The translations under genes and the position numbers were made by a program. 64,000 nucleotides of DNA from Candidatus Woesearchaeota archaeon (GTDB lineage Archaea; Nanobdellota; Nanobdellia; SCGC-AAA011-G17; JACPNG01), in NCBI GenBank assembly GCA_017609525.1, contig JAFCDT010000002.1:4885-68884 (forward strand). Direction: 5' to 3'. This document shows, one piece after another, positions 15,665 through 60,563 of this stretch; position 1 is the first letter of the stretch; the number at the start of each line of letters is the position of its first letter. The notes under the pieces were generated by a model, which was not told the origin of the DNA, searched no databases, and saw nothing but the letters and a program-made list of their open reading frames with translations.

Positions 15665-16747
15665 TTATAGATCAAAAATAAATGAAACAAAATTTTTATT
15701 GTTGATTATTTTTGTTGTTTTTCCTTTTATTCCAGATATATTGCTTATTATTTTATTTCTAGGAATTTTATTTATTTCAGAAAGCCTCAAAACAACACTT
15801 TTGTTAATTAAATTATTTCTGAACTGATAATAGAGGGTTAGGTATTTCATATCTAATTCCTTTGCTAACTTTCTTTTGTTCGTGCCACTTAATAATGTTT
15901 TTTTAAATTTTTCTGAGACTTGAAAATAAAAAGTCATCTGTTTCATATGATTTAAGATAGTTTTCTTCTTTCTTTCAGAAAGACAGATAATACCTTTATT
16001 AAACATTTTCCAATAATTTGACCAACTAGTTATTTGAACTAAAATTTCATTTTTATCTTTTCTTTCTATTAAAGTAGAGGTTATTGCTTCTTTTTCAAGA
16101 CAACTTTTAATTAATTCTGCTAATTTTTTTTCTTTTATAAGAGATAAATGATACCCCATATAAACAATATAATTCTCTTTTTTCATGGTATTTATGCTTC
16201 CTTCTGCTGCAAATAATCCTGACAAAAAAGCCTTTCTTAATGTTGAATTCTCCGTAAACTTAGACTTTAAAATTTGTTTTGTTAATTCTAAAAAAAGGGT
16301 TCTTAGAATCCTACTACCAACTTGTATAGCTAAACATTCATTTTTATGTCTTCGAGATGCCTTCAATCTGATTTTTGAATCATCCAAAGCTAAGTAATTT
16401 TGCCAATTCTTTAGTGAATCTTTTTTAATTTTTCTTGTTCTAAGAGTGTAACTTATTTTATTTTTGTTTATTCCAAAGTATTTCTCGAAAAAATGTAAAA
16501 TATTCTGACAAAGATCTATATCTCTAGAAGTAAACTCCAAATGATATTCATCTTTACTAATTTTTCCATCTCCCAAATATAGTGCCCAACTCTCAATAAA
16601 TTTTGGAGTTATTTTGAGAGTTTTATTTAGAATCATTGGTTTTGGAGAATTTCCTCTACCTTTATTTTGATAATAAACTTTTATTTTCTTTCTTTGTTTT
16701 ATTATTTTCCATTCTTTAGGTAATAATTTTATTATGCTGATTTCCAT
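15665..16747 (-). CDS. free-standing double-motif LAGLIDADG-type homing endonuclease-like protein
   Basis: Two LAGLIDADG-like motifs (WALYLGDGKIS and LSGLFAAEGSIN) about 100 aa apart, a basic C-terminal extension, no flanking intein or host protein sequence. Confidence 0.5.
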   Translation of the reverse strand: MEISIIKLLPKEWKIIKQRKKIKVYYQNKGRGNSPKPMILNKTLKITPKFIESWALYLGDGKISKDEYHLEFTSRDIDLCQNILHFFEKYFGINKNKISYTLRTRKIKKDSLKNWQNYLALDDSKIRLKASRRHKNECLAIQVGSRILRTLFLELTKQILKSKFTENSTLRKAFLSGLFAAEGSINTMKKENYIVYMGYHLSLIKEKKLAELIKSCLEKEAITSTLIERKDKNEILVQITSWSNYWKMFNKGIICLSERKKKTILNHMKQMTFYFQVSEKFKKTLLSGTNKRKLAKELDMKYLTLYYQFRNNLINKSVVLRLSEINKIPRNKIISNISGIKGKTTKIINNKNFVSFIFDL

Positions 16748-17435
16748 ATTGGTTATTTAATATTAAACTTTATAAAGTTGTTGTTTTAGTTTACATATTA
16801 ACTAAGAAATTAAAAGATAAGAAAACATGGTTGCCTTAAGTATATACTACAATCTTAAACATTCGTAGTCTAATTTTTTATTGATCTTCTTCCATTCAAG
16901 GGTGCATTGGAACATTTGTTTTTTCATTAGAGGTTTATGTAATATTGACATAATATCTTTTTGTAAGATTCAGTTTATGATCCACATGTATTTACTATTC
17001 TGAAAAACACATTTATATGATCCTTTTTCCTTACCTAAATCAGAATCTTCGGTACATTTACTCCATTGGTTATTATAACAAAGATATTTTTTAGATGGAT
17101 TCAATGTATCAGAATTTAAACAATCTCCTTTAGAGGATACACAATCAGTTATCTCATCACAACAACCTCCTCCTCCTTGATCAAAATAATACTCATTGTT
17201 ATCATCTCCGCAACAGTTGGGTGTGCCAAAGTTGTTTTGATCATCAAATAAGTTCCAATCTTCAGCAACCTCTTTAACATACGGTGTCCAAGTTCCGATT
17301 ACTATTCTTTTTTCTCCATTTATTGTTATATGTCCATCATCACTTACTCCTACTGTGTAAGGGCTTGTTTTCCAATTACACCCGTATTGGGATAAACAAC
17401 TTTGTTTTGTTTGGTACTTCGAACATAATTCTGCT

Positions 17436-17627
17436 TTTCCAATGCAAGCTACATTAGAATTCCAACTGCAAAGCCTGTTTTGCTTACAGAAAGATTCTGA
17501 CTTTCTACTATCACAAGAAGGTGTTTTCCCTCCATTACATAAAGCATGTACAGTATTTTTTGCAATCATCGCTTCCACAGCATTGATATCTCTTCCACCA
17601 ATTGCATGGTTGTGCTTTTCCTGTACA
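17436..17627. repeat. near-identical direct repeat copy 1 of 3 inside the Cys-rich gene
   Basis: TTTTCCAATGCAAGCTACATTAGAATTCCAACTGCAAAGCCTGTTTTGCTTACAGAAAGATTCTGACTTTCTACTATCACAAGAAGGTGTTTTCCCTCCATTACATAAAGCA...CCACCAATTGCATGGTTGTGCTTTTCCTGTACA shared with the copies at 19469 and 19801. Confidence 0.8.
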
Positions 17628-19468
17628 ACTTCCTGGTGAAGATTGCCATGAACAGCTTTGTTGAGATTCACATAATGATTCAGAATTAAAAAACTCACAT
17701 GTTGTTGCAATCCCTTGACACAACTCGGCTGTTGTATCTTCAGTTAACTCTGTACTTGAACTTCTATAAATCTTATACACTTTAACCTCATACCTTTGTA
17801 AAGTTATTTCGATATTCTGAAGTTGTTTTGGTGCTCCAGAAGGAATACCTTCAACAATCTCTTGTACTTTCCATGTTGTCTCTGTTCTTTTAATCAAATT
17901 CTTAATTACGTAATTAATTTGTATTTGTTGGTTTTTATTATTTAATACGATAAAATAATAATCATCATTATATTTTTTAACCAAATACTCAGGATTGGGA
18001 ACATTTGGGTTTTTAGTTACCAATGCTGGGCGAGGATAACCTTTTGTTGGCCAATAATCAGAATATTTAGGAATGTTTTTATTAATGGTTTTTGCTAAAA
18101 ATATTTTTTCTAATAATTTAATTTCATTTGTTATTCTCTTAACATTCTGAGATACAGGACTTTTAATAAAAGAAAAATACATAATTCCATCTGCGCCGTG
18201 CATTAATGATTGATAAGCCATATTTTTCATTTCAATATAATCAGGGTAACTCTTCCAATCACCAGTCCAAGTTACATTCATTCCTTCTAAAATAACAAAG
18301 AAAGGTTTATTTTTTCCCTCCAACATTTCCTTCATTCTTTCGGTAGTATATGCAACGGAATTAATATCAACATTGCCAAAGAAAGATTTGGCACCAACGT
18401 GAAATGGGTAAATATCAATGCTCACAATATCTGCAGCATCTAAATGTTTGCTTACCATTTCAGGATATCTTGTTTCATAATTCAAAATACGTACCAAATA
18501 ATTTCCATAAACTGGACAGGAAGGACAAACTTCTTTAATTAAAGTATACCCATTTCTAAGTTCTGTTAAACTCTCTTGGGTGGGGAATACATTTCTACCC
18601 CACTTATAATTCCATCCAGAAGGTTCATCAAATCCAATAAAGGTAAATAGGTTAGAATCTTTTATGCATGAATTATAAAAATCCCTAAATTCATTTATTC
18701 TTTGTTGTCTTGTTAATGGAGACGGTTCTCCAGATTTATGGTCATGATCATAATATTTTGAAATTACATAAGCTCCGCCGACATTATTCTGTTTAAGACC
18801 ATTAGAATATCTTTCACACTTCTCCATAGATTCATAGGGCGGTCCCCACCATAAAAAGTCTATATTATATTTATTGCCTTTATAATCAAAATCATAATAA
18901 CTATCATCAGACCATCCAATTCCGCTGTCTCCTGGAGTCTTATCCTGTGCAGATAAACATGTGTTCCTATCTATATCCGGATCTTCTAAATTTGTTATTT
19001 CTGTCCATTTAATTCCTCCATCATTTGCACATATGTAACTTCCAGAAACTTTACCTACATCAGAATCTTCAGTGCATTTGCTCCATTTATGGTTGTAGCA
19101 ATGCCATCCAGTTGAACCTGTGTCAGAATCAAAACACTTACCTATATAATTTACACAATCAGTTATCTCATCACAACAAGCATCTTCTCCTTGAGTAAAA
19201 TAGTACTCATTACTATCATCACCACAACATTTAGGATTTCCAAAGTTATTTGTATCATCAAATAAGCTACCGTCAGGAGAATCATCACTCCACCCAACAC
19301 CATCGTCTCCAGGGGTTTGATCTTGAGTAGCTAAGCACATGCTTCTATCTGTGTCTGGATCGTTTCCTGTTGTTGCCCAACCACACCCTGATTGAGCTTC
19401 ACAAGTTAATGGATCAGAAAAAGCAGAACACATTAAAGGATTTCCTCCACAATATCCTCCAGAATTCT

Positions 19469-19667
19469 CCCAACTGCAAAGCCTGTTTTGCTTACAGAAA
19501 GATTCTGACTTTCTACTATCACAAGAAGGTGTTTTCCCTCCATTACATAAAGCATCACCAGGTCCACAACAGTTCTGTCCGTTGTATGTACAGTATTTTT
19601 TGCAATCTCCACTCCAACAGCATTGATATCTCTTCCACCAATTGCATGGTTGTGCTTTTCCTGTACA
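19469..19667. repeat. direct repeat copy 2 of 3 (carries a roughly 33-nt insertion relative to copy 1)
   Basis: Same sequence as copy 1 read by eye. Located at the junction of ORF pieces 19433-19699/19555-19995 and 17535-19433. Confidence 0.8.
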
Positions 19668-19800
19668 TGCATTGTTGTTGTGTGGAAAAAGCTGAACATG
19701 AATCAGGATTGCCCGTACAAGAACCCTCAGAAGAATGCCAGCTACATCCCATTTGAGATTCGCAATCTAATGGTGTCAGAAGGTTTGAACATGATTTGAC

Positions 19801-19964
19801 TTTTCCAATGCAAGCTACATTAGAATTCCAACTGCAAAGCCTGTTTTGCTTACAGAAAGATTCTGACTTTCTACTATCACAAGAAGGTGTTTTCCCTCCA
19901 TTACATAAAGCATACAGCATTGATATCTCTTCCACCAATTGCATGGTTGTGCTTTTCCTGTACA
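19801..19964. repeat. direct repeat copy 3 of 3 (carries a roughly 30-nt deletion relative to copy 1)
   Basis: Same sequence as copy 1 read by eye. Located at the junction of ORF pieces 19815-20204 and 19555-19995. Confidence 0.8.
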
Positions 19965-20302
19965 GGTGGCTTCTCCTTCCAGATCCCATGTGCATCCTTG
20001 TTGGTTAATGCAATCTGTTTGAGTTTTTATGTCTGCACAATTAACAGATGCTCCTGTGCAGTAACTGCCAGAAGTTGCTTTTCCAGTTAACCTCTCACCC
20101 ATATCAAATTTAGAGATAATCTCGAATAAATTCTGGAAATCAAAAGCTGATACAGAGAATACAAAAACGAGTAAAATGATTAAAGACAGTATTATTTTTT
20201 TCATTGGTCCCTTTTTTATTTTATCTACTTTTAACTAATGGTTAAACTTATTTAAATTTTTTGATAGAAAGTTATTTATTGTAGTCTTGCCTAAATGGAA
20301 GG

Positions 20303-20720: not shown

Positions 20721-20792
20721 GTCCCGGTAGCTTAATGGTGGAGCACACGGCTGTTAACCGTGCGGTTACAGGTTCGAGTCCTGTCCGGGACG
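20721..20792 (+). tRNA. tRNA-Asn (GTT)
   Basis: Cloverleaf built by hand: acceptor GTCCCGG/CCGGGAC, D arm GCTTAATGGTGGAGC, anticodon stem CACGG/CCGTG with loop CTGTTAA, T arm ACAGGTTCGAGTCCTGT, discriminator G. No encoded CCA. Confidence 0.8.
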
Positions 20793-20795
20793 TAT

Positions 20796-20870
20796 GGGCC
20801 TGTGGCGTAGTCTGGCTAGCGCACCCGACTGATAATCGGGAGGTCCTGTGTTCAAATCACAGCAGGCCCA
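20796..20870 (+). tRNA. tRNA-Ile (GAT)
   Basis: Acceptor GGGCCTG/CAGGCCC, anticodon stem CCCGA/TCGGG with loop CTGATAA, T arm CTGTGTTCAAATCACAG, discriminator A. Lies 3 nt after tRNA-Asn. Confidence 0.8.
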
Positions 20871-20880
20871 TTTTTTCTTA
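20871..20880 (+). terminator. oligo-T archaeal terminator after the tRNA pair
   Basis: TTTTTTCTTATTT immediately 3' of tRNA-Ile. Confidence 0.3.
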
Positions 20881-23644: not shown

Positions 23645-23671
23645 ATAATTATTCTTAAAAGAATAAAGAAG
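23645..23671 (-). terminator. putative hairpin plus T-run terminator for the minus-strand tRNA-Glu/Val pair
   Basis: TTATTCTTAAAAGAATAA inverted repeat followed (minus-strand sense) by an oligo-T run immediately 3' of tRNA-Val. Confidence 0.25.
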
Positions 23672-23743
23672 TGGGCCCGGTGAGAATCGAACTCACTACC
23701 TTTACCGTGTGAGGGTAATGTCATACCAATAGACCACGGGCCC
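23672..23743 (-). tRNA. tRNA-Val (CAC)
   Basis: Reverse complement folds as acceptor GGGCCCG/CGGGCCC, anticodon stem TTACC/GGTAA with loop CTCACAC, T arm GTGAGTTCGATTCTCAC, discriminator A. Confidence 0.75.
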
Positions 23744-23745
23744 AA

Positions 23746-24883
<1,138 letters not shown>

Positions 24884-41707: not shown

Positions 41708-42943
41708 TTGATGTTGGATTATTATTCTAGGCCAGATATTCAGGAAGAGATTTTTATAGCTTCTAGACACAGGGAAATTGGGGTGATGTATAAAGACAGG
41801 GGTTTTGGTAAAAGGCCAGATATCTTACAATTTAAAAGTGATGTAGGAGAGTTCGCTAAACAAGGGGCAAGTTCTTTTCATATTTCATTGGAAAGGTGGA
41901 AAAATCCTTTAGAGTTAAAGTCTGGTATGTCTAAAAAAGAGTTAGATGGCTTAAGAGAGGGGTGGGATTTTATAGCTGACATAGATTGTAAATATTTTGA
42001 ATTTTCAAAGATTGCTGCTTTTCTTTTAATTGAAGCTCTAAGATTTCACGAAATTGAGAATATAAGCTTAAAGTTTTCTGGGAATCGCTCTTTTCATGTT
42101 GGTGTTGCATTTGAAACCTTTCCTAAAGTGGTAAATAATATACAAATAAAGGATATTTTTCCACAAGGAGTTAGAATTATTGCTGATTACTTAAAATCAA
42201 TGATCAAAAATGAATTAAGGGAAAGAATATTAAAAATAAGTCCTGAAATGGGAGAAAATTTCGATCCTTTTTCAATCGTTGATATTGATTCTGTGGCTAT
42301 TTCAAGCAGGCATATGATTCGAGCACCTTATTCACTAAATGAAAAATCTGGATTGGTTAGTTTGCCCATAAAGATTGAGGAGTTAAAAAATTTTGAACTT
42401 AAACAGGCAAGAGTAGAAAATGTTAAAACCAAAGTCAGGTTTCTTGATAAAGGTGAACCAAATGAGGCTTCTAACCTACTTGTACAAGCTTTTGATTGGA
42501 ATATGAAAGCTAAAAGGAATGAGCCAGAAGTAATTGTTAAAAAAAGAGAATACGAAATTCCTAGCGTAGCGATTAAAGAAGAATTTTTTCCTCCATGTAT
42601 AAAACAAATATTAAATGGAATAGAAAAAGATGGAAGAAAACGGGCAGTATTTATTTTAATTAATTTTTTAGGACAAATGGGATGGGATTATAATGCTATA
42701 AAAAAGATTTTGTTAGAATGGAACAAGAAGAACTATGAAGAATTAAAAGAAGGGTATATTTTAAGTCAACTAAGCTGGCATAAAAGACAGGGTAAAAAAA
42801 TTTTGCCGCCTAATTGTGACAATAAGTCATACTACTTTGATATAGGTGTGAAGTGCGATGACCCCTTATGTAAAAAAGTGAAGAATCCTGTTAATTATGC
42901 CATGAGAAAGGTGAGCTTTAAAAAAAATATTAGGAAGAGATAG
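41708..42943 (+). CDS. priS: DNA primase small (catalytic) subunit PriS
   Basis: DFIADIDCKY (DxD), SGNRSFHVGV, RAPYSLNEKSGLVSLPI. C-terminal Cys cluster CDNKSYYFDIGVKCDDPLC. Confidence 0.7.
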   Translation: MMLDYYSRPDIQEEIFIASRHREIGVMYKDRGFGKRPDILQFKSDVGEFAKQGASSFHISLERWKNPLELKSGMSKKELDGLREGWDFIADIDCKYFEFSKIAAFLLIEALRFHEIENISLKFSGNRSFHVGVAFETFPKVVNNIQIKDIFPQGVRIIADYLKSMIKNELRERILKISPEMGENFDPFSIVDIDSVAISSRHMIRAPYSLNEKSGLVSLPIKIEELKNFELKQARVENVKTKVRFLDKGEPNEASNLLVQAFDWNMKAKRNEPEVIVKKREYEIPSVAIKEEFFPPCIKQILNGIEKDGRKRAVFILINFLGQMGWDYNAIKKILLEWNKKNYEELKEGYILSQLSWHKRQGKKILPPNCDNKSYYFDIGVKCDDPLCKKVKNPVNYAMRKVSFKKNIRKR

Positions 42944-45263
42944 CCATCCTATCCAATTGCTGGAAGAGTTGCTCTTCCTCTTTTGTGAGCTTTTTGAACT
43001 TATTCGTTTTTTTGTATCTTATTTCTGAAGCTTTTTTGATCCATTCATAATTTGGTTGTTCTTTTATTCTTATTTTGGGGAAGGCTTCTATTATTTGTTC
43101 TTTTTGGGTTTTGTATTTCATTTGTTCAAGTTTATTCATCTTTTCTTCTAATTCTATCTCCTGTTTATCTAATTCTGTTGTTTTTTGCGATATTTTTGGA
43201 GTTATTTCTGGTATGTTCAGGTGAAGTTTAACTTTTGGTTTTTCTATTTCTTTCAATGCTTCTTGCATTTGCTGTTGTCTCCTGAGGTTTTCAAGGTTAA
43301 CCATCTTGGACACTAGGCTAAGTTCCTGTTTTTCAAGAAGTTTATTTTGCAGAGTTTTGATTTGTTTAGGCGGAGTTATTTTAAGCTCATCTAAAGATAC
43401 CAATCTATCTGAAATAGGTGTACCCCTCAGTTTAGCAACCCTTATCATTTCCTGTAAAGATTTTTTGATTATTGGTGCTTGTTCTGATAATTTGTGTGCC
43501 CCATGTTCTTGGATTTGCTGTATGCTTGTTAGTAATGAACTTAAAGGATTAGTTAGGCGCGGAGTTTTTTTGATTTGTGGCAACATTACTCTTTCTGGTT
43601 TTAGGAGCTTGGGTTGAAATCTTTTTTGAATTTTATCTAAGAAGGCAAGTTCGGTTTTATGTAGTTGGTATATTCCCTCTCTTTGTTTTATATTTATTTC
43701 CTGAAGCATGTCTTGGATTTTGTGAATTATTTTTATTTCACCTTTTTTGAGTCTATAAAAGTAAAGTTCTATTGAATCTTTTAGATTTTCTAAATTCTGA
43801 TTAATTTTTTCAAGAGCTTTATATTCTTTTACAGTGGGGTACTGTAATTCTTCAATCTTTATCTGTTCTAGGTCTTTCTTTTTTTGTATTTCTATATTGA
43901 ATTTAAGATGTTTTCTTTTTTCATAATTTTTTTGTAATTGGTTTAGTTGATTTTTAATTGAGAATAGTTGCTGTTTAACCTTTGTTTTTTCTGCAGTGAG
44001 GGTTCCTTTTATTCCTTCTTTGAGTTTTTCTTCTTTTTCTATTGTTTTATGTTTTTTCTCTTTTAATTTTGTTATTTGGTTTTTTATTTTATTTGCTAGT
44101 TGTTTTTCTTTTTCATGAAGGTTATGGGCCCATTTATGCTCTATTTGGGCTAACTGGGGCAATGTAGTTTTGTAAATGTCTTTGATCCAGTTATGTTTGT
44201 ATTTAGAAAATAAAGATAGAGAAGATTTTATAGTTGAAAGATAGTGTTTTTCCTCTTTTGTAACTATCCCACCTTTTTCGGTTACTTGATTCAGTTGTTG
44301 GGTCAATAGATCCAGTTTTCTCGATTCCTCATTAAGTCGTTCTTGCTCTATTCTATTATAAAGATTTACCAAAGAGATTCCATACTCTTTTTCTTGCTCT
44401 ATTGGTAATTTATAATATAGCATCAATGCTTGAGAGTAAAGTTTCTTTGCTTCTGGAATTTGATGTATGTTTCTTGTTGCTTTTTTAAGTATTTTATTGA
44501 TCTTTCTTTTTTGGAAACATAGCGTAAACGGATTCAAAAACCGCAGTATTTCTGGTTTTTCTTCTTCTAGCCTTATCTTGAATCTTTTTATCTCTCTTTT
44601 TGATACCTTAGGAGCTTTTTTAAGTGGTTTGAGCCTTTCTTTTACTAATTGGATGAACTCTTTGAAACTTTTTTGCCTGCCTATTAATATTTGCTTTAAT
44701 GTTTCTATTCTGCGTTGGGGTTTTTTAACAGGAATACGTTTTTTTAATTCTGTAATCTCTATAAACTGGTCAGAAATTTCTTTTATGTTTTGTTTTGTGT
44801 ATGTCTTTCCACTATATTTATATTCTAAGATTTTTTCTATAATCTCTTTTAATTGTGGTTTCTTTTTTTCTAGTTTTGCTACTAATTCTTCATGCGTTAA
44901 TTCATGTTTTATTTCTAAAATATTGTAAGCATATTCTTTTATTAATCCTGACAGTTGTTTAAGCGCTGTTTCTTCAGAAAGAGAACGAAGTTTTTTTGCA
45001 AATATTAATGCTTCTTTGTGATAGTCTGTTTCTGGTAGTTCTTGTATTTCTTTTTTTAGTCTTTTCTTTTTGACGTTAATCTTGGGAATTTTAAATTTTG
45101 GTAAGTGGTCTTTGATAAAAATTACTAAAAATACAAGGAGGGAAAGCAAAATTAAAACTAAAGGTGCAAGAAAAAATGGGGAATACGATCTTGAGCCTAT
45201 AGTTATTTCTTGCGCATATGCAAAAGGCATAGTTAAAAGAAATATTGCGACCTCTTTTTTCAT
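42930..45263 (-). CDS. 777-aa signal-anchored coiled-coil protein (Lys/Glu/Gln-rich)
   Basis: N-terminus MKKEVAIFLLTMPFAYAQ (signal) then a TM (FFLAPLVLILLSLLVFLVIFI), followed by about 700 aa of heptad-like K/E/Q/L sequence. Converges on and overlaps priS by 14 nt. Confidence 0.5.
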   Translation of the reverse strand: MKKEVAIFLLTMPFAYAQEITIGSRSYSPFFLAPLVLILLSLLVFLVIFIKDHLPKFKIPKINVKKKRLKKEIQELPETDYHKEALIFAKKLRSLSEETALKQLSGLIKEYAYNILEIKHELTHEELVAKLEKKKPQLKEIIEKILEYKYSGKTYTKQNIKEISDQFIEITELKKRIPVKKPQRRIETLKQILIGRQKSFKEFIQLVKERLKPLKKAPKVSKREIKRFKIRLEEEKPEILRFLNPFTLCFQKRKINKILKKATRNIHQIPEAKKLYSQALMLYYKLPIEQEKEYGISLVNLYNRIEQERLNEESRKLDLLTQQLNQVTEKGGIVTKEEKHYLSTIKSSLSLFSKYKHNWIKDIYKTTLPQLAQIEHKWAHNLHEKEKQLANKIKNQITKLKEKKHKTIEKEEKLKEGIKGTLTAEKTKVKQQLFSIKNQLNQLQKNYEKRKHLKFNIEIQKKKDLEQIKIEELQYPTVKEYKALEKINQNLENLKDSIELYFYRLKKGEIKIIHKIQDMLQEINIKQREGIYQLHKTELAFLDKIQKRFQPKLLKPERVMLPQIKKTPRLTNPLSSLLTSIQQIQEHGAHKLSEQAPIIKKSLQEMIRVAKLRGTPISDRLVSLDELKITPPKQIKTLQNKLLEKQELSLVSKMVNLENLRRQQQMQEALKEIEKPKVKLHLNIPEITPKISQKTTELDKQEIELEEKMNKLEQMKYKTQKEQIIEAFPKIRIKEQPNYEWIKKASEIRYKKTNKFKKLTKEEEQLFQQLDRMAISS

Positions 45264-45298: not shown

Positions 45299-46291
45299 TC
45301 ATATTACTTTTAATGCTCTTTTGAGGTATCGCTTAGCAAGTTCTGTTTCATGTTCTGATAAAGCTCCCTCTTTTAGTTTGTTAAACAAGAAGAGGATCTC
45401 CTGTTTGAGGTTGCCCTCGATTCCCTCCTTGTGTAATTTGTTGTTTAATTCTGATAGGGAAGAATTAGCAGTAATGCCCAGTTTTTGGAAAAAAGTTTCA
45501 ATTAAATAGAAAATATGCGCGGATGCGGTTGCTTTAGGCATTTTTTTAATTTTTGTTAGGCCACTTTTTATTGTTTTTTCATGTTTTGTTTTTTTGAACT
45601 TTAATCCCTCAGTTGCTTTTTTGATTGAGAATGCAATAATAATCAGTATTAGTATGACAAGGGTGATCATAATTGGTTTTTTTACATTGAATTTTAATGC
45701 ACTTTCATCCACTGCTCCTTGTTTGTTTAATAGTTGGATGGAGTATGTGGGAACATCATCTTTAATGGAAACATTAATTTCTACTTCGTCATTGATTACA
45801 ACAAATAAATGATCTTCCAAAATTCTTGAATAAATTTTTTCTATTGGTTTTTCTTCTATCTCTCTTAGTAAGGGCAAAAGGTTGATGGTTTCATTAAACA
45901 TTTCCCTAGTTTTTGCAGAAGAAATTATTTTTGGATAATCCTGGATTAATTTTGTTATATTTACTACTTGTGATGCTTCATATAGCTCTTCTTTTTCAAT
46001 TAATACTGATTCATTAACTGCAAATATAACTGTTTCTGATCCAGTAAATGAATTTAAAGGAGTAATTGTAGCGGTTCCATCTTTTACTGTAACTTGAACA
46101 TTTTCTGTATAATTTATGAAATAATCGGCCTGTTTTGGAAGATGTTTATAAAGATTTATTACAACTTCGTTTGGAGAATGCAATCTTATTATTAATTTGT
46201 CTTCCAAGGCTAAGGAAAATGGAATTAATAATATAATGATTGAGATAATCCGTAAGATTTGCGGAATTTTTTTGTCTTTTTGTTTGGACAT
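45299..46291 (-). CDS. type-I membrane protein (signal peptide, ectodomain, one TM, basic cytoplasmic tail)
   Basis: ILRIISIIILLIPFSLA signal. TM ITLVILILIIIAFSI near residue 215. Co-directional, 35 nt upstream of the coiled-coil gene. Confidence 0.45.
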   Translation of the reverse strand: MSKQKDKKIPQILRIISIIILLIPFSLALEDKLIIRLHSPNEVVINLYKHLPKQADYFINYTENVQVTVKDGTATITPLNSFTGSETVIFAVNESVLIEKEELYEASQVVNITKLIQDYPKIISSAKTREMFNETINLLPLLREIEEKPIEKIYSRILEDHLFVVINDEVEINVSIKDDVPTYSIQLLNKQGAVDESALKFNVKKPIMITLVILILIIIAFSIKKATEGLKFKKTKHEKTIKSGLTKIKKMPKATASAHIFYLIETFFQKLGITANSSLSELNNKLHKEGIEGNLKQEILFLFNKLKEGALSEHETELAKRYLKRALKVI

Positions 46292-47748: not shown

Positions 47749-47932
47749 AATGAAAAGTAAAAAGATTATTCTTATTTTAATTATTTTAGTGATTATTTTG
47801 GGTATTGGTTATATGATAATTAGTTTTAATGATTGGGAAAAAGAGGATATGGTTAAAGGAGACATAGTAAAAAATAACCTTGGAGAGGGTGGAGGGTATA
47901 GAATCCAAATCTTAGAAAAGGGGGCTGGTTGA
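47749..47932 (+). CDS. small single-TM protein heading the surface locus
   Basis: MKSKKIILILIILVIILGIGYMII then a Gly-rich tail. 4-nt overlap with the next gene. The start could also be 47723. Confidence 0.3.
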
Positions 47933-50844
47933 TGAAAGGAGGGATAGCAGTAATCATATTTATTGTACTTATTGGGTTAGTTGGTGCTATCGATGATTTG
48001 TTGGCTTTACAAGGAAAGGTTGATCAAAGCGGAACATTGGTTGAATCAGGAGATATTGTAGTAGAGATATGGGATGATGCGACTGCTGGAAATTTAATTT
48101 ATAATTCTACTTCGGATTTTAATGGCGCAATCCAGGGAGGCTTTTTTGATATTGTACTTGGTAGCGGAAGCAATAGCTTAACTTTGAATTTAAGTCAGAC
48201 TTACTATATGGATATAGCTATTGAAGGACAAGACATTGATTGGGGAGGTGATGAAAGGAGGCAGTTTCAGGCTACTGTCGGAAGGCCTTACTTTGAAGAA
48301 GAGGTTGTTTTGAATGATACACTATATACTAAAGATGGAAATGTTGGAATCAACGATGCAAATCCGGGCCATACTTTAAGTGTTGAGGGAAATTTAAGTT
48401 TGGATTCTTCTGTATATGCAAGTTGTACTGCACTGGAGACCGATTCTGCTGGAGGGATAGTCTGTGGAACTGATGATGCTGGAACTTCATCCACCTCATT
48501 TTGGGCAGGAAGTGCTGTAAATGAAATTTATAATGATACTACTGCTGGAGTTGGTATTGGAACTAATAATCCAAGTTATAAATTAGAGGTAAATTCTGTA
48601 GATAGTGCATTAAATGTAAGTGGGATGTTGTATGTTAATTCAAGTAGTGTTGGTATTGGGACTGACGTTCCTGGCAACCCTATATCTATAAGCGGAGTTA
48701 TTGGGATTACAGACAACATTCTTTTTGATAATGGTGTTGATTTCTTTTGGAAAAATTCTTCTGGGACTTCATGGAGCATAATAACATTGCACACAAATAA
48801 CAATCTTTATTTAACATCGCCCGCAGATGCAGATATGATATTTAGAGTTGGTGGATATACTGAAAGAATGAGAATAGACAGTTCAGGAAATGTAGGTATA
48901 GGAACAACAAGTCCAAATAAAACTCTTACAATATTAGGTAATTTGAGTTTGGCTGGTCCTGAGTATATTAGCTGTACTTCTTTGGAGACTGATGCTGAGG
49001 GAGGAATTAGGTGTGGGACTGATGACACTGGCTCTGGGGGAATAACTAATTGGGACAGCAATATTGCTTTCTTGAATGAAAGTCAAACTTTTGCTGAGAA
49101 TAATACCTTTGATGAGAATGTTGTTATTAATACGAGACTAGGAGTTGGAATCGATAACCCCGATGTTACCATGCATGTAAATTCTTCAGCAATTGGGGGA
49201 ATCAAGATCTCGGGAAATTTTCCTCTTTTACAACTACACGACTTCGCTACTGAGAATAAAATGAATATTGAACTTGGAAGAATTGATGCAGGAATGACTA
49301 TATATGATAATGGTTTTGGTGGTGTTGTCTTCTATATTGAAAATACTACAGGAAATGTTGGAATTGGAACTACTACTGTAAATAAAACATTAACAATATT
49401 GGGTAATTTAAGTTTGGCTGGTCCTGAGTATATTAGCTGTACTTCTTTGGAGACTGATGCTGAAGGAGGGATTAGGTGTGGGGCTGATGCTGGAGAGGGA
49501 GGAGGAGTATTTCTTGGATGGGACTCTAATCTGGTGTGGCATAATCAAAGCTTAAATTCAACAATAGCATTGTGGATTGAAAATGATACAACATTAACAG
49601 ACGCGCAAGTAGATGATTTTGCTTTCAATGATAATTCTTCATTGGATACAAGGTATGTAAGCAGGAGCGATTGGACTACAATAGATAACTATCCTTCTGC
49701 TTGTGCTGGAGGACAGTATGTAAGCGGGATAGGGGATACCTTAACTTGTTCAACACCTTCAGGAGGTACAACCTATTGGACAGGAAGTGGAAATTTAATT
49801 TATAATGATACTACTGCTGGAGTTGGAATTGGTACTAATAATCCAAGTTATAAATTAGAAGTAAATGATGCTTCAACAAGCTCTGTTAATCTTTCTGGAG
49901 CTTTATATGTTGATGGAAGCGAAAGGCTTATTGGTATTGGAACTGATAGTCCGTTTAAGGCACTAACGGTTTTGGGAAAGGCGGCTATTGGAGATTCAAT
50001 TAATAGCTCAAGAGCTTCAAGAGCCTTTAATGTTATTGATACTAATGCCGTAGTTAAAATTATGAGGATTAGTGATGATTCTATACTAGCAGCTCCTGCT
50101 TTTGAATTAATACATGAGAACGCTGATGGAGCAAGAGATGTCTATTGGGATTTCTTTGCTAGTGTTGATGGTATAAGTATGAGAGATAGACTGGCGGGAG
50201 AGCAAAGATCTCTCTTTATAGAGGCAGCCACACCAACCAATACCCTTTATTTATCAAGTGGTGGTAATGTAGGTATAAGAACAGCAAGTCCAAATAAAAC
50301 TCTTACAATATTAGGTAATTTGAGTTTGGCTGGTCCTGAGTATATTAGCTGTACTTCTTTGGAGACTGATGCTGAGGGAGGAATTAGGTGTGGAACAGAT
50401 GCTACTGGGACTTCATCCCCTTCATTTTGGGCAGGAAGTGCTGTAAATGAAATTTACAATGATACTACTGTTGGAGTTGGAATTGGTACTAATAATCCAA
50501 GTTATAAATTAGAAGTAAATTCTGTAGATAATGCTATGAATGTAAGTGGGATGTTGTATGTTAATTCAAGTAGTGTTGGTATTGGTGTTATCAACCCAAG
50601 ATATGAATTAGATTTGGATACAGGCACTATAAGGGCACATAGAGTTGTAGGTTCAAGTGGATTAAACTTAACTACAACAGGAAATGTGCCTGTTGTTATT
50701 TATACATCTGACACAGAAAGAATGAGAATTGATTCTTCTGGAAATGTAGGTATAGGAACTAATAATCCAGATTTTAAGTTAGATGTTATAGGAACAATAA
50801 AAGCTAATGATAGCATTAAAATAGGCACATGGTGGAAAGAGTAA
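47929..50844 (+). CDS. giant secreted tail-fibre-like repeat protein (N-terminal part; may be continuous with 50852-52657)
   Basis: Signal-anchor MMKGGIAVIIFIVLIGLVGA. More than 12 copies of the NVGIGTxxPxxxLxVxG fibre repeat. Three copies of LTILGNLSLAGPEYISCTSLETDAEGGIRCG. Long near-identical nucleotide repeats. Confidence 0.65.
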   Translation: MMKGGIAVIIFIVLIGLVGAIDDLLALQGKVDQSGTLVESGDIVVEIWDDATAGNLIYNSTSDFNGAIQGGFFDIVLGSGSNSLTLNLSQTYYMDIAIEGQDIDWGGDERRQFQATVGRPYFEEEVVLNDTLYTKDGNVGINDANPGHTLSVEGNLSLDSSVYASCTALETDSAGGIVCGTDDAGTSSTSFWAGSAVNEIYNDTTAGVGIGTNNPSYKLEVNSVDSALNVSGMLYVNSSSVGIGTDVPGNPISISGVIGITDNILFDNGVDFFWKNSSGTSWSIITLHTNNNLYLTSPADADMIFRVGGYTERMRIDSSGNVGIGTTSPNKTLTILGNLSLAGPEYISCTSLETDAEGGIRCGTDDTGSGGITNWDSNIAFLNESQTFAENNTFDENVVINTRLGVGIDNPDVTMHVNSSAIGGIKISGNFPLLQLHDFATENKMNIELGRIDAGMTIYDNGFGGVVFYIENTTGNVGIGTTTVNKTLTILGNLSLAGPEYISCTSLETDAEGGIRCGADAGEGGGVFLGWDSNLVWHNQSLNSTIALWIENDTTLTDAQVDDFAFNDNSSLDTRYVSRSDWTTIDNYPSACAGGQYVSGIGDTLTCSTPSGGTTYWTGSGNLIYNDTTAGVGIGTNNPSYKLEVNDASTSSVNLSGALYVDGSERLIGIGTDSPFKALTVLGKAAIGDSINSSRASRAFNVIDTNAVVKIMRISDDSILAAPAFELIHENADGARDVYWDFFASVDGISMRDRLAGEQRSLFIEAATPTNTLYLSSGGNVGIRTASPNKTLTILGNLSLAGPEYISCTSLETDAEGGIRCGTDATGTSSPSFWAGSAVNEIYNDTTVGVGIGTNNPSYKLEVNSVDNAMNVSGMLYVNSSSVGIGVINPRYELDLDTGTIRAHRVVGSSGLNLTTTGNVPVVIYTSDTERMRIDSSGNVGIGTNNPDFKLDVIGTIKANDSIKIGTWWKE
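48500..48660. repeat. intragenic repeat B, copy 1 (copy 2 at 50424-50585; partial copies near 49790 and 51000)
   Basis: TTTTGGGCAGGAAGTGCTGTAAATGAAATTTATAATGATACTACTGCTGGAGTTGG...AATTCTGTAGATAGTGCATTAAATGTAAGTGGGATGTTGTATGTTAATTCAAGTAGTGTTGGTATTGG. Confidence 0.75.
48895..49013. repeat. intragenic near-identical repeat A, copy 1 (other copies 49396-49483 and 50272-50392)
   Basis: GGTATAGGAACAACAAGTCCAAATAAAACTCTTACAATATTAGGTAATTTGAGTTTGGCTGGTCCTGAGTATATTAGCTGTACTTCTTTGGAGACTGATGCTGAGGGAGGAATTAGGTGTGG repeated almost exactly at 50272. Confidence 0.8.
50272..50392. repeat. intragenic repeat A, copy 3
   Basis: Identical by eye to 48895-49013 over about 120 nt. Copy 2 (49396-49483) is more diverged. 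Confidence 0.8.
50424..50585. repeat. intragenic repeat B, copy 2
   Basis: About 160 nt nearly identical to 48500-48660. Confidence 0.75.
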
Positions 50845-50851
50845 TACTGGG

Positions 50852-52657
50852 GTGATGATTGGCTCAAACAATGATTTTTCTGGATGGGGAAATCAGATAG
50901 ATGGAATGGATACAGATAATTCTGGTAGTTATTCTAGTTTATATTTAAATTACAGGGGTGGAAAGAAAATCATTTTAACAAATTCGAGTGATGGTAATGT
51001 AGGTATAGGAACAACAAATCCTAGTTATAAATTAGAAGTAAATTCTGTAGATAGTGCATTAAATGTAAGTGGAAATTTGTATGTTAATTCTAGTAATGTT
51101 GGTATAGGGTTTGACAATCCACAACATACCCTTCATATTGAAAACTCATCTGGAGATCTTGTAAGTGCAGTAAAGGTTACTGATGGAAGAAATAGTGTCT
51201 TTTTACAAGCAAGCAGAAGCGTGGGGGATGGGGGGGTTATAGGCACAAGATTGGTCTTGGATGATAATGGGGCGAGCGGTAAAAGATGGGATATTACTAC
51301 AGGAATTAAAGAGGGGGGTTTAGTATTTAGGAATAATGATGATGGAATTAACGCTTTGACATTAAATTCTTCTGGAGATGTAGGTATAGGAACAACAAGT
51401 CCAGATAGAAATTTAGAAGTATCAGGAACGGGAGCACAACAAATTGAAGTAGAATCTACATCAACCGACGCTGATTTAATTATTGATGCCAATACTGATT
51501 CAGATGCAAGAATTATTTTACAAGAAGCAGGAGTAAATTTAGGTTGGATAAGATTAGATGGAGATGATGGTAATAAAATAAAATTTCAGTATAGCACAAG
51601 TGCTACTGATGCAATGACTATCGACCAAACTGGAAAAATAGGTATAGGAACTGCTTTTCCTGGTGCTAAATTACATGTTTCTGAAACAAATAATTCTGCC
51701 TTTGATGCTGCAGTTGCTATTACTAGAACCGCCAGCGGAGGAGACTCTCTTGCATTCCTCAATATAGGTAGTAATTGGTACTTTGGAAGAGATAGTGCGG
51801 GAAACGCTTTTCAGGCTAGATACGCTAATTGGGACTTGACCGAAGACAGGTGGGAATCTACTTATACTGGTAGTATTGTGGGGCCTGTTTTTACCCAATA
51901 TGAGTACAATGGAGACATAAACTTTAAATCAATGGCTCCTCAATCCTTGACAGAAGGGGATGCTTTAAGTTTCGTAAATGTTATGACTTTGAAAGGGGGA
52001 GGAAATGTGGGTATAGTGACAACAAATCCACAGGCAAGATTAGAGGTTGATGATAATAATTATTGGTATAGTACAAAATATCCTGCGGTTGGTATTAAAA
52101 GCATAAGGCCTGCACTTGCTTTTTATGATGATAATTCAGAAGGTAAAAATGTAACAGTCCTTTATCAAGACCAGCAAACTTTCAAGATAGCTAAAACTGC
52201 ATTTACTACTAATGATTGGGGTTATGATGAGAAAATAGATGCATTAAAAATAGATTCAGACGCGAGCATAACATTTCCATATGTTTATTCTGATATTGTT
52301 GGTGGAACGAATAGAGATTTATATATAGACAATACAGGTTTGATAGGTTATGTTAGTTCTAGTATAAGATATAAAGAAAACATAAAAGATATTGGAAATG
52401 GTTCAGAAAAGCTTTATGATTTAAGACCCGTTTCCTTTAATTATAAAGGAGATAATTCCTCTAGCCTTCAATATGGTTTAATTGCTGAAGAAGTTGAAGA
52501 GGTTATGCCTGAGATAGTAAGCTATGATGAAGAAGGTAATCCAGAAACAGTAAGCTACAGTAAGCTAATAAGCCCAATGCTTAATGAGATCCAACAACTT
52601 AAGGAAGAGAATGAAGAATTAAAAAAGAGGATTGAAGTTTTAGAAAAAAAGATTTAG
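50852..52657 (+). CDS. tail-fibre-like repeat protein with a C-terminal intramolecular chaperone (peptidase S74-like) auto-processing domain
   Basis: NVGIGTTNP fibre repeats, then SSSIRYKENIKDIGNGSEKLYDLRPVSFNYKGDNSSSLQYGLIAEEVEEVMPEIVSYDEEGNPETVSYSKLISPMLNEIQQLKEENEELKKRIEVLEKKI. This matches the phage tail-spike/endosialidase C-terminal chaperone domain (Ser in S-x-R-x-K, LIAQEVEEV-like box, terminal coiled coil). No signal peptide of its own. Confidence 0.7.
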   Translation: MMIGSNNDFSGWGNQIDGMDTDNSGSYSSLYLNYRGGKKIILTNSSDGNVGIGTTNPSYKLEVNSVDSALNVSGNLYVNSSNVGIGFDNPQHTLHIENSSGDLVSAVKVTDGRNSVFLQASRSVGDGGVIGTRLVLDDNGASGKRWDITTGIKEGGLVFRNNDDGINALTLNSSGDVGIGTTSPDRNLEVSGTGAQQIEVESTSTDADLIIDANTDSDARIILQEAGVNLGWIRLDGDDGNKIKFQYSTSATDAMTIDQTGKIGIGTAFPGAKLHVSETNNSAFDAAVAITRTASGGDSLAFLNIGSNWYFGRDSAGNAFQARYANWDLTEDRWESTYTGSIVGPVFTQYEYNGDINFKSMAPQSLTEGDALSFVNVMTLKGGGNVGIVTTNPQARLEVDDNNYWYSTKYPAVGIKSIRPALAFYDDNSEGKNVTVLYQDQQTFKIAKTAFTTNDWGYDEKIDALKIDSDASITFPYVYSDIVGGTNRDLYIDNTGLIGYVSSSIRYKENIKDIGNGSEKLYDLRPVSFNYKGDNSSSLQYGLIAEEVEEVMPEIVSYDEEGNPETVSYSKLISPMLNEIQQLKEENEELKKRIEVLEKKI

Positions 52658-52762
52658 TATGATACTTACATAACAAGTAAAAACATAAGCTTTATATACT
52701 ATTTTACTTACTTTATGAGTAGAAAACCATTATAAGTAAAATTACTTATATAGTGAGTATTA

Positions 52763-53248
52763 ATGGATAAATTAAATAAAAAAGAGGGAATTAGTTCTGA
52801 TAAAGACTTTGAAAAATTAAAAAAAATATTAAGCTCCTTAGAAATAAAGTATAAGAAAACTAAAAAAGAAATTCTCAATTTGATTGAAGAAATGGAAACA
52901 ATGCCTGTTTCAATCTTTAATAACACTAAGCTTTCCATACCAGAATCAATTGTTAAGTATTTTGTTGAAGAAAAAAATTACAAATATAGTAAGATTTCTA
53001 AGATCATCAAACGGGACCAAAGGACTGTTTGGGGCTTTTATAACAAAGCTAGGAAGAAATTTCCTAAAAAGTTGAAAATTAATGATTCTAAATTAATTCC
53101 TGTTTCAATTTTTAGTAAAAAAAGCTTGCTAGAAACTATTGCGATTTATCTTAAGAAAAATTTTGATTTAAGTTACCATGATGTTGCTGTTTTACTTAAT
53201 AGAGATGATAGAACGATTTGGACTGTTTGTAATAGGAAGAAAAAATGA
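52763..53248 (+). CDS. tandem helix-turn-helix DNA-binding protein (two sigma-r4/LuxR-like HTH units), candidate locus regulator
   Basis: Internal duplication: IPESIVKYFVEEKNYKYSKISKIIKRDQRTVWGFYNKARKKF and IPVSIFSKKSLLETIAIYLKKNFDLSYHDVAVLLNRDDRTIWTVCNRKKK. 4-nt overlap with the 1070-aa gene. Confidence 0.5.
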   Translation: MDKLNKKEGISSDKDFEKLKKILSSLEIKYKKTKKEILNLIEEMETMPVSIFNNTKLSIPESIVKYFVEEKNYKYSKISKIIKRDQRTVWGFYNKARKKFPKKLKINDSKLIPVSIFSKKSLLETIAIYLKKNFDLSYHDVAVLLNRDDRTIWTVCNRKKK

Positions 53249-56200
53249 ACGAAAGTATCAAGGCAATTATGATTAGTATAATGGTTTTCGTAGTGTTAAG
53301 TGGGCTAATTTATGGTGCCTTTATCTTTACGAGTTATACGGGTTTTGCTGTTAAGGAAATAGTAAGCATTCCTTATGAAGAAGGATTTGAAAATGGAACC
53401 ATAAAGGTAAGTTTAAATGAAACTATTTGGGAGTTTGAAGTTCAAGAACTTGTTAAAGATAAAGATATCATTTTGAATTTAACTAGTCTGGAAACTAATG
53501 AATATGGAGAATTATATATCGACATCATTGTTAATGGAACTGTTGTTGAAAGTAAAAAAGTGATTATTGAAGGAAAGGAAGAAAAACCTTTTGTTACAGA
53601 AGAAGTTAATGAGACAGTTGAAGAAAAATTTTCTGAAGCTAATAATAGTGCTTTTGGAGAAATAAATGTGTCTGTTGAGGAAATTAACAAAACTATTGGG
53701 CTGGTTAATAAGACAGTTGAAGAATCTGATAATGAGATTGTAAATCAAACAGAACCACTAAGAAAGATCAATAAAACCTTAGAAATAAATGAAACGGTTG
53801 AAGAAGTTAATATTACTCTACCAAAAAATATTACTGAAAATTTGAATGAATCTAAGGTAGTAGATAAAGTTTCTATTGTAGAAGAGACAGAAGAAGTAAT
53901 ACAACCTTTAGTTGTGATAAATCAGCCAGTTAGGTGGGTTAAAAAGGTTAGATTAGAGAATTATTCAAATAGTCTTACTGTTGAGGTTCCTAAAGAAGCA
54001 AAGAACATTAGTGTTAAAAAAATTGAAGATGGAAAGGGAAGAGCAATTGAAGAGAAAAAAATCAAGGTTAAAGAAAAAGGAGAAATTAAAGACTTAGAAG
54101 AATTTAATACAATAACTGCGCAGGCGGTCGCTGTTGGTTCTGGCAAACCTTATTTAAGAAACTTTTTCGACTTGATTTCGAAATTTATTAATTCTTTACT
54201 CAAAAAACCCGCAGTAACTGGATTAGTTACTGGTGAAGATAAAGGAACTAAAGAGGTTATTATTGGAGAGTCTGTTAAGGAAGTAGAAATCAAGTATGAA
54301 ATTCCTGGTCCAGGTGTAATAGAATCAGACAAGGCAGATGGTAAGATCATAACAATATTTTCTGAGATTCACTATGAGAATATATTAGCATATACAGAAG
54401 TAGAAGAAACGGATCCAGAGGGTATAAAACTTTACTGGAAACAAAATGGTTCTAGTATTTTGGTTGAAAATGTGGATTACCTAGATGAAAATCAAAATGG
54501 ATTGATAGATAAAATCCAGTGGATTGTTCCACATTTAAGCAATCAGACATATGAGATTGATTTAATTGTTTTAAATGTTCAGAGTTATCCTTATGTTGGG
54601 GGCAATTGGACAGTAAAATTTAACACTACCGGAATAGCAAATTTAACGATAAGTGCATTTAATGGTACTACTTTTGAAGATTATCATAATGATAGCGTGA
54701 TTCATGATTTAGAATTTTTAGAGTTAAGATGTGGCTCTGAATTAATTGCTAATAATCTTACTGCTAATAATAGTTTATTTGTTTCAGATTATAGTTGTAC
54801 AAGTACTAGCTTTGAAACAAGTAAAGTTTTAACACCAGGTGACCACTATATTAAATTTGAGTTTGGACCAATAACTAAATATGCAAAAAACCTTGCTGGT
54901 GAATTTGGAGGGTTGGCTGGAGGAGGAAATGCTAGTGGTACAATGAATTTAATTACCGGTGCCTTTGGTTTTACTGGTTCTAACGAAACAACTGGATCAT
55001 ATACCACTATGCTGCATGGACTACTGAGTGTAGGAAAAAACATAACTTCTGGCGTTTATACATTAGGTTTAGGTTATATTTACATGCTTGATATTGTTCA
55101 GAAGGTTTTTGTTAACCTTGTTAGCCCCGCAGAAGGGGAAACAATTGCTACTGCTACTTTTATTTATATTCCAAACGCTGATGAAATACACAGTTGTAGT
55201 TTGTATGGTAATTGGACCACTGGTTGGCATGCCAATCAAACTGATTATTCTATAGCATTAAGTTCCACTAACCAGTTTACACTAGGTGAATTAGAAGAAG
55301 GCAGGTTTCAGTGGAATGTTATGTGCAACAATAGCCAGGGGGATTTTTTTGCAGAAAACAATTATACTTTTGTACTAAACCGTGTACCAAGTGTGCCAGA
55401 CTTGAATGAACCTTTAAATAACAGCATGTGGAATAGTAGCATTCCTGAACTTAATTGGTCCAACAGCACAGATACAACAGGAGATGATATATTTTATTAT
55501 TTGGAAATTGATGATTCAATAGCTTTTGATAGTGTGGATTATGCAAATAGTACAATAAAAGAAAATGTAAATACAACATCGGATCTTCCTAGCGGACTAG
55601 TTGCAGGAAACTATTGGTGGAGGGTTTTAGCTTATGATGGCAACGCAAACTCTTCATGGTCAGAGGTAAGAAATTTATCAATAAGATTTAATGATGCTCC
55701 TAGTGTTCCTGAATTATTTTTGCCATATAACGATACACAAATAACAGATAGGACTCCTACTTTTAGCTGGAGCAATTCTACTGATCCAGATGGAGATACT
55801 ATCACATATCACATTCAAATAGATGGAGTTATAGACTTTTCAAGTCCTGAGGTGGATGGTTTTGATGTAGGGGGCATTGCTGAAACTGCAAATACAACAA
55901 ACTGGACTGCAACATCTGATTTGCAACAATTAGACACAGAGTACTTTTGGAGGGTTAGAGCGTATGATGGAATTGCTTATAGCAATTGGTCTGAAATAAG
56001 GAATTTTTCGATTGCCAGTACAGTGATTATCACTCTTCCAACAGACAGCATAAACTTTACTGTTGCTAATCCAGGGGATAGTGACGACACTAGTGATGAT
56101 TCCCCTACTCCGATTGTAATAAGAAATAGCGGAAATACTGGTGCTGATGTTAATATCAGTTTGGCCTCTGGGAGCACTGGTCTTTGGGCAAGCAAAGTAA

Positions 56201-58118: not shown

Positions 58119-58156
58119 AAAAACTTAAAAATATTGAATATCAGATAGGATACAGA

Positions 58157-58369
58157 ATGGTCAAAAAAAGGGGCAAAAAAAAGGTTTCTAAAAATTTGTT
58201 AGCCATACTTTTAGTTATTGCAATTTTGTTATCTGTTGTAGGGACCTATATGGCTATTTACAATGCCAATGTTGTAAGGGTAATTGAGATTGAGCCCGCT
58301 TCCTTGGGAAAGGTCGGGGTTTATGTTAACAATCCAGAACTCCCCGCAGGAGATGAAGGTGGCGGATAA
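58157..58369 (+). CDS. small N-terminally anchored protein (pilin-like candidate)
   Basis: MVKKRGKKKVSKNLLAILLVIAILLSVVGTYMAI: basic N-terminus plus one hydrophobic helix, 70 aa. The six-frame ORF 58082-58369 extends it upstream of the likely start. Confidence 0.35.
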   Translation: MVKKRGKKKVSKNLLAILLVIAILLSVVGTYMAIYNANVVRVIEIEPASLGKVGVYVNNPELPAGDEGGG

Positions 58370-58979: not shown

Positions 58980-59007
58980 TTATTTAGAAAGTTTTATATA
59001 AAAAGTT

Positions 59008-60524: not shown

Positions 60525-60563
60525 AAATCTATATAAATAACCATACTCTAATTTTATCTAACA

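Follow-up and report, generated by a model that had tools for sequence, protein, structure and literature searches.

Three frame breaks at near-identical repeat cassettes in a secreted glycoside hydrolase-like gene of a woesearchaeal archaeon are consistent with recent intragenic cassette copying

We analyzed a window of 64,000 nucleotides (nt) from contig JAFCDT010000002.1 of a Candidatus Woesearchaeota archaeon and within it a minus-strand gene for a secreted, cysteine-rich and glycoside hydrolase-like protein. A three-frame map revealed one coding unit from position 20204 to 16970, composed of four sensible stop-free segments that are separated by three frame breaks. Each frame change is located in or at the edge of one of three copies of a repeat cassette. 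On balance we would rather regard this gene as the result of a recent copying and pasting of the cassette within the gene (ectopic gene conversion) with imprecise junctions, leading to a young pseudogene or null allele.

The first segment (19914–20204, frame 0; this and all further features of the gene are on the minus strand) contains the start codon and a Sec-type signal peptide as judged by inspection (MKKIILSLIILLVFVFSVSA, followed by FDF...). These are followed by module M1 of the CxxQxxCxW type (CADIKTQTDCINQQGCTW) and by CTGKAQPCNWWKRYQCC, which is encoded by the block R1 of cassette copy C. In the second segment (19669–19911, frame 2) the modules ALCNGGKTPSCDSRKSESFCKQNRLCSW, CSNLLTPLDCESQMGCSW and CTGNPDSCSAFSTQQQC are arranged in this order; the segment ends with CSAFSTQQQC, its final module being truncated. 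The third and largest segment (17548–19667, frame 0) carries the only intact cassette and the CCGDD module 1 as well as a core of roughly 400 amino acids (aa) and one further Cys module, and has CTGKAQPCNWWKRYQCCGSDDCKKYC as its C-terminal end. The fourth segment (16970–17545, frame 1; sensible frame 17545–16973) consists of the R2 module ALCNGG..., CSKYQTKQSCLSQYGCNW, a spacer, the CCGDD module 2 (17031–17273) and the stop codon at 16972–16970. A single minus-strand gene with a signal peptide at 20204 had been proposed in a preliminary description of this DNA, made from the sequence alone, and is confirmed here. The same applies to both module types named therein, C-x2-Q-x2-C-x-W and CCGDDxNEYYF/CCDEITDCV, the latter being present twice.

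At break 1 (between 19914 and 19913) frame 0 changes to frame 2. Break 2 (between 19668 and 19667) is marked by one extra base between TGC and the TGT of R1 and leads back to frame 0; here copy B sets in abruptly with its 5' edge and cuts a module short. At break 3 (between 17548 and 17547) frame 0 changes to frame 1. If lesions were placed randomly, the probability of finding all three within repeats would be (564/3232)^3 = 0.005. The preliminary description counted five open reading frames (ORFs) and placed every break inside a repeat. The gene is indeed broken up and all breaks are tied to the copies, but there are only three breaks and four segments, with the 88-aa ORF at 19433–19699 being an out-of-frame by-product, and break 2 is found at the edge of copy B rather than inside it. 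The 632-aa ORF is open from 19766.

In the sequence as assembled, translation from the ATG at 20204 enters an out-of-frame run that stops at 19815–19817. Since the product ends after 129 aa, the lesions block the full product from the annotated start, and the pieces downstream of this stub, including the hydrolase, are without a signal peptide. No stop was found in 1075 sensible codons, and conceptual repair results in clean ORFs of 790, 989 or 1108 aa. The GC skew is negative over 16–20 kb, as for other minus-strand genes, and the modules of the gene do not occur elsewhere in the 64-kb window.

The three copies of the cassette were designated A (17434–17627), B (19463–19667) and C (19800–19964). 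Each consists of the blocks R1 (51 nt) and R2 (86 nt) with a linker of variable length in between. In copy A, R1 (17627–17577) is followed by a linker of 29 nt (17576–17548) and by R2 from 17547. Copy B comprises R1 (19667–19617), a linker of 61 nt (19616–19556) and R2 (19555–19470), whereas in copy C R1 (19964–19914) is directly joined to R2 (from 19913) without any linker. Alignment and exact-block analysis showed R1 and R2 to be 100% identical across all three copies, which confirms the three near-identical repeats reported before; in shuffled sequence no such block matches are expected. Copies A and C are alike for another 29 nt beyond R2, 114 nt in all, with the share of C reaching 19800. 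Beyond the blocks, identity drops sharply to about 50–80%, which is typical of the other paralogous modules of the gene. Since R1 and R2 are identical while the other paralogous modules share only about 75–80% identity, the copying would be recent.

R1 encodes CTGKAQPCNWWKRYQCC and R2 encodes ALCNGGKTPSCDSRKSESFCKQNRLCSW, each in one sensible frame. The only intact copy is copy B, which reads CTGKAQPCNWWKRYQCCWSGDCKKYCTYNGQNCCGPGDALCNGGKTPSCDSRKSESFCKQNRLCSW in a single frame, and only the linker of 61 nt holds both blocks in one frame. An earlier suggestion, by which the repeat could be translated into Cys-rich modules in either of two frames, was not borne out, given that each block has one sensible frame and that both share the same frame in copy B. 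Likewise, the copies do not differ by indels of 30 nt as described previously: the linker is 32 nt shorter in A and 61 nt shorter in C when compared to B, and an additional indel of 3 nt is present at the 3' end of R2. On their right-hand side, both linker deletions end at an identical base, directly before ATGCTTTATG, with a microhomology of 0–2 nt. Within the first 9 nt of the linker, five positions differ between A and B, while the surroundings are identical.

A repeat that is present three times within the gene for a surface protein, in an archaeon with a small genome, could bring to mind a diversity-generating retroelement or another form of templated hypermutation acting on the repeats, and so could the differing 9-nt patch of linkers A and B. 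We consider this extremely improbable. R1 and R2 are 100% identical and not adenine-variant, the differences within the patch are not adenine-specific, and a Pfam scan of 20 flanking and larger ORFs, a part of all ORFs of the window, revealed no reverse transcriptase.

In total, a single orthologue was found among approximately 15 billion proteins. This protein (P0002, 798 aa, 69% identity) lies on L001, a contig of 2,955 nt from the Joint Genome Institute (JGI 3300033148). The other matches of the search were the window's own pieces as well as distant ones to the CCGDD module or to the glycoside hydrolase (GH) core alone. The module of L001 at position A, CVGIAQAGTRSCNSRNTESLCAQDPLCLW (CVGIAQAGTRSCNSRNTESLC...), is plain and in frame, and in the window the same module is split by an insert of 76 nt. 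At position B, nucleotides 760–811 of L001 align to 19719–19668, ending exactly at the edge of copy B, and the alignment resumes at 19458; here, 209 nt of cassette are present in place of 43 nt of an ordinary module. Compared to L001, the window therefore carries 76 nt more at A and, in net terms, 166 nt more at B, both of which are ≡ 1 mod 3. L001 is cassette-free and in frame across the sites matching copies A and B, its module at B being intact, and position C has no counterpart in L001.

The L001 gene is disrupted as well. At about 2573–2598 an exact tandem duplication of 13 nt (CATAAATGGAGAA, present twice) puts the C-terminal CCGDD module out of frame. This site differs from the breaks in the window and lies outside any repeat; it is an independent disruption in the same gene family. 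A comparison of module order with a relative, as advised in the preliminary description, showed that the order differs between both genes: SP-CCGDD1-M4-M5-GH in L001 (250–2953) and SP-M1-U-M3-M4-U-M5-CCGDD1-GH in the window (20204–16970), SP being the signal peptide. Hence CCGDD1 precedes M4-M5 in L001 and follows M4-M5 in the window. A DPDxDR motif is located at both possible exchange points.

Relative to a plain module, the copies contain inserts of 108 nt (copy B), 76 nt (copy A) and 47 nt (copy C). The 108-nt insert of copy B (19539–19646) encodes CNWWKRYQCCWSGDCKKYCTYNGQNCCGPGDALCNG with nine Cys residues in 36 aa. Among 200,000 random 36-codon sequences of matching composition none was both stop-free and contained at least nine Cys. 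Since nine Cys in a stop-free stretch are beyond random expectation, the insert is a coding sequence and not an intron or another non-coding element. The copies A and C are deletion derivatives of the insert in copy B. Neither for CNWWKRYQCCWSGDCKKYCTYNGQNCCGPGDALCNG nor for its part CNWWKRYQCC were relatives found in any database searched (about 15 billion proteins; word-indexed and exhaustive HMMER searches). Because the cassette is present in no other protein among these, its donor would lie within the gene. A sibling assembly was not found either: exact-protein look-ups, scans of contigs from metagenomes and genomes for the protein patterns, and scans for the exact R1 and R2 DNA all gave no matches. 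The CC...C...C spacing of the 36-aa insert loosely recalls hevein or knottin-type mini-domains.

The inserts could also be taken for elements that are bypassed in expression, be it that the ribosome is programmed to shift its frame, that the transcript slips or that the insert is removed in the manner of an intron. Excision of the inserts of 47, 76 and 108 nt would join CTGKAQP to GKTPSC in all copies, as is found in the orthologue, and breaks 1 and 3 return to frame once the insert is taken out completely. Furthermore, R1 and R2 can pair around the insert (AAAGCA/UGCUUU, UACA/UGUA) in all three folds. However, break 2 remains unrescued by insert removal, and the insert of copy B is coding with its nine Cys. 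With z values between -1.0 and -1.9 the folds are no better than those of shuffled sequences, and their pairing does not form a bulge-helix-bulge motif, so that an archaeal bulge-helix-bulge intron was rejected. A programmed ribosomal frameshift was rejected as well: the shifts do not all go in one direction, the junctions lack a slippery heptamer or homopolymer, and the modules at the breaks are physically truncated, which frameshifting would not cause. Altogether we regard programmed recoding as highly improbable.

To estimate the selection that has acted on the gene, the ratio of non-synonymous to synonymous substitution rates (dN/dS) was calculated against L001 according to Nei-Gojobori, with dS values of 0.6–1.4. 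The ratio was 0.15 for CCGDD1 as well as for the GH core, 0.34 for the modules that immediately follow break 3, and 0.16 for CCGDD2, which is located downstream of a frameshift in both lineages. From these low ratios and the lack of stops it follows that purifying selection acted on the gene during almost the whole of its divergence. As judged from the sequence, the breaks and the identical R blocks should be very recent, or else the breaks are not real. An old, decaying pseudogene was rejected, given a dN/dS of 0.15–0.34, four sensible segments that are free of stops, and the restriction of all lesions to the repeats. From the three options given in the preliminary description, cassette shuffling would thus be retained in combination with the pseudogene, while a long decay is contradicted by a dN/dS of about 0.15 and the lack of stops, and a simple assembly collapse is disfavoured by the arithmetic of the linkers, as outlined below.

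From these data we infer a copying mechanism, an order of events and a loss of function. The starting point would be a gene of a low-GC archaeon for a secreted modular enzyme with a signal peptide, an array of CxxQxxCxW modules of about 30 aa, CCGDD module 1, a clan-A-like hydrolase with a triosephosphate isomerase (TIM) barrel, Cys modules and CCGDD module 2. The in-frame insert of 108 nt would have been gained by a single Cys module. Position A, which is occupied by a plain module in the orthologue, is presumed to be the native site of the resulting cassette, with B and C being the recipients. Very recently, the cassette of about 200 nt may have been transferred to two further modules within the gene by non-reciprocal copying, either by ectopic gene conversion or by template switching during break repair or replication. 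The copied tracts would have been resolved on their 3' side in the conserved C-x-W homology and imprecisely elsewhere, with an illegitimate 5' end (break 2) or with a loss of linker sequence in the interior (breaks 1 and 3). The presumed outcome is a linker-less copy C (-61 nt), a copy A shortened by 32 nt and a copy B whose 5' edge is joined mid-module (+166 nt net when compared to the orthologue). Every lesion shifts the frame, leaving a secreted stub of 129 aa as the only product of the gene as assembled.

Such a history resembles repeat-mediated recombination and ectopic conversion in other genes for modular surface proteins. Tandem paralogous modules, sharp-edged identical tracts within diverged modules and lesions confined to repeats, with the rest of the gene pristine, are common to both. 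In contrast to other pseudogenes arising by repeat-mediated conversion, one tract end is illegitimate here (homology of 0–2 nt), two internal deletions have a common end point, and all three events break the frame.

Several points speak against recent cassette copying. The reality of the junctions and the presence of three lesions on one molecule are taken from the assembled sequence. Three independent frame-breaking lesions are many for one young pseudogene under otherwise strong purifying selection. The shared right-hand end point of the linker deletions is not explained by random deletion, and the patch of 9 nt with five differences between linkers A and B does not fit a simple history with one donor. 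Two variants of the history were rejected. Hairpin-promoted slippage as the cause of the 32-nt deletion was discarded, as the DNA hairpin reaches only -3.4 kcal/mol and is no better than those of shuffled sequences. A single event for breaks 1 and 2, either a tandem duplication or an insertion of 297 nt, was discarded too, since every scenario needs at least two or three events.

If the breaks are not real, the true gene may be intact, for example in its 989-aa or 1108-aa form, with the repeats or a mixture of strains having led the assembler to junctions or to a path that exist in no single genome. All defects are found in repeats with identical blocks (86–114 nt) which are able to confuse short-read graphs, and both linker deletions stop exactly where the three-way identity resumes. 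Moreover, the remainder of the gene looks functional, being stop-free with a dN/dS of 0.15. Deleting the loop of 297 nt between the N-terminal R1 copies, a loop of the kind that could arise in graph traversal, would result in an in-frame hydrolase of 790 aa with signal peptide. On the other hand, mis-pairing of flanks across R1 and R2 neither makes nor cures the breaks. As the linkers of 0 nt and 29 nt are out of frame whatever the flanks, simple repeat collapse or mis-threading is disfavoured.

In de Bruijn assembly all k-mers derive from reads, and chimeric joins typically show overlaps of k-1. The junctions CAATGCTGT to ATGCTTT, ACTGTAC to ATGCTTT and CAATGCA to TGTACAGG should therefore exist in reads, and their homology is 0–2 nt instead of an overlap of k-1. 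No other broken gene was found in the 64 kb. The neighbouring housekeeping genes (topoisomerase VI, MCM, RFC and aminoacyl-tRNA synthetases) are all intact, so that the assembly is free of a general indel problem. The orthologue, which was assembled independently, is frame-broken too, by a tandem duplication outside the repeats. Taken together, an assembly artefact or strain chimera appears unlikely, while still deserving consideration.

Another possibility is that the cassettes serve as homology arms by which conversion or crossover breaks and restores the frame, so that the gene would exist as ON and OFF alleles of a surface enzyme, with the OFF state being the one assembled. A crossover between R1 of copy C and R1 of copy B would remove exactly 297 nt (99 codons) and erase breaks 1 and 2. 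The resulting signal peptide-bearing hydrolase of 790 aa is similar in size to the 798-aa ORF of the orthologue; if linker A were then converted from B, the product would have 989 aa. In addition, the past purifying selection on parts that are now out of frame suggests expression, either current or until very recently. The orthologue is OFF for its C-terminal module as well, and the 13-nt tandem duplication could in principle revert.

These observations are offset by others. The proposal refers to one assembled state, and a family of two members, both of them broken, may reflect coincidence or parallel loss. A simple-sequence tract, an invertase or a silent-cassette locus was not found in the window. 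Given two non-zero shifts, the arithmetic of a frame-restoring crossover is expected by chance in about one of two cases, and homologous exchange does not reversibly produce a junction such as the illegitimate one on the 5' side of copy B. We hence consider reversible switching by the cassettes rather improbable. The further-reaching proposal of a recombination-driven switch of both the on/off state and the length of a secreted hydrolase in a small-genome archaeon, with the broken orthologue as a second instance, is slightly more doubtful still.

Bacterial contingency loci and cassette-based antigenic variation are exemplified by pilE/pilS and vlsE. The gene described here shares with them a secreted or surface protein with repeated cassettes, which could be exchanged through homologous recombination so as to alter the expressed product, and a single crossover would restore the frame. 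It differs in that neither a separate silent-cassette locus nor a simple-sequence repeat is present, and in being known from one sequence in an archaeon. To our knowledge, contingency or cassette-variation systems have not been established in archaea, and the switch, if true, would represent a phase-variation system of the cassette type in this domain.

The glycoside hydrolase-like nature of the central region, which had been proposed for about 400 aa, is supported by sequence comparison and structure prediction. The region of about 370–400 aa (17760–18983, stop-free) matches the Pfam family Glyco_hydro_42 (E = 1.3e-7, 31.8 bits at a cut-off of 21), the match being partial with about 140 of 376 profile positions. 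An AlphaFold2 model based on 20 distant homologues predicts a (beta/alpha)8 or TIM barrel with a C-terminal beta-sandwich, with a predicted local distance difference test score (pLDDT) of mostly 70–94 for residues ~190–560. Foldseek matched the core model to structures of GH79, GH30, GH13 and GH51 (E 1e-12 to 1e-9), at about 10% sequence identity to any solved structure. With regard to the catalytic glutamate pair expected on strands 4 and 7 of such enzymes, the alignment of 20 sequences showed invariance of D269 and E270 and near-invariance of E437 as candidate positions. Sequence searches of PDB and NCBIfam gave no match for the core. The barrel with a beta-sandwich and the Pfam match above threshold are shared with the hydrolases of clan GH-A (Glyco_hydro_42; GH30/GH79/GH51-like), and the invariant D-E pair may be a further common trait. 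Unlike in characterised GH42 enzymes, the core is flanked by Cys-rich modules.

The CCGDD module 1 (19005–19361; DPDTDR...CCGDDSNEYYF...CCDEITDCV...GGIKW) shares 86% aa identity with the orthologue. No Pfam or NCBIfam model matched the CCGDD module, and the Cys modules had no match in sequence searches of Pfam, NCBIfam or PDB. The same pair of motifs, CCGDDxNEYY and CC-x-TDC, is present with the same spacing in large secreted proteins with several modules that derive from uncultivated archaea and bacteria (P0004, P0005, P0010, P0025 and P0027). In contrast to the gene analyzed here, these possess neither a hydrolase core nor the CNWWKRYQCC insert. A search of the literature for such modules in DPANN archaea returned nothing relevant.

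The window as a whole is an archaeal segment of low GC content (33%), which encodes topoisomerase VI B/A, MCM, RFC, primase, aminoacyl-tRNA synthetases and tRNAs in intact ORFs. The broken gene is separated from topoisomerase VI A by a free-standing LAGLIDADG-type ORF of 360 aa (15665–16747, minus strand; Pfam LAGLIDADG_3), which lies immediately downstream of it. A homing-endonuclease ORF thus adjoins a gene with scars resembling those of break repair; this proximity is suggestive of a possible link between the two. Close upstream, on the promoter side of the gene, the tRNA pairs Asn-Ile (20721–20871) and Val-Glu (23671–23821) were found, with a spacing of 1–3 nt within the pairs.

A run of very large ORFs on the plus strand (47929–62321) looks like a cluster of surface or tail fibre-like proteins. 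It includes a protein with a C-terminal intramolecular-chaperone domain of the Peptidase_S74 type (50852–52657), one with an Ig domain similar to that of Rha78A (53245–56457) and a He_PIG/PKD protein (60564–62321), as well as ORFs of 971 aa and 399 aa without a Pfam match. Two minus-strand ORFs of 777 aa (42930–45263) and 330 aa (45299–46291) have no Pfam family either, and the AT skew is strongly negative at 43–46 kb.

For annotation, the gene is a warning, as what appears as four or five hypothetical proteins is really one gene. The disruption of a gene in association with repeats is in itself ordinary, though the present case is a tidy one and concerns a very rare family that has two members among about 15 billion proteins; its weight would grow only if the breaks were reversible variants within the population. 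If the sequence is real, a gene for a modular surface enzyme is seen here just after it was disabled by intragenic cassette copying, and it would illustrate how repeat-rich secreted proteins are rearranged and lost in uncultivated archaea.

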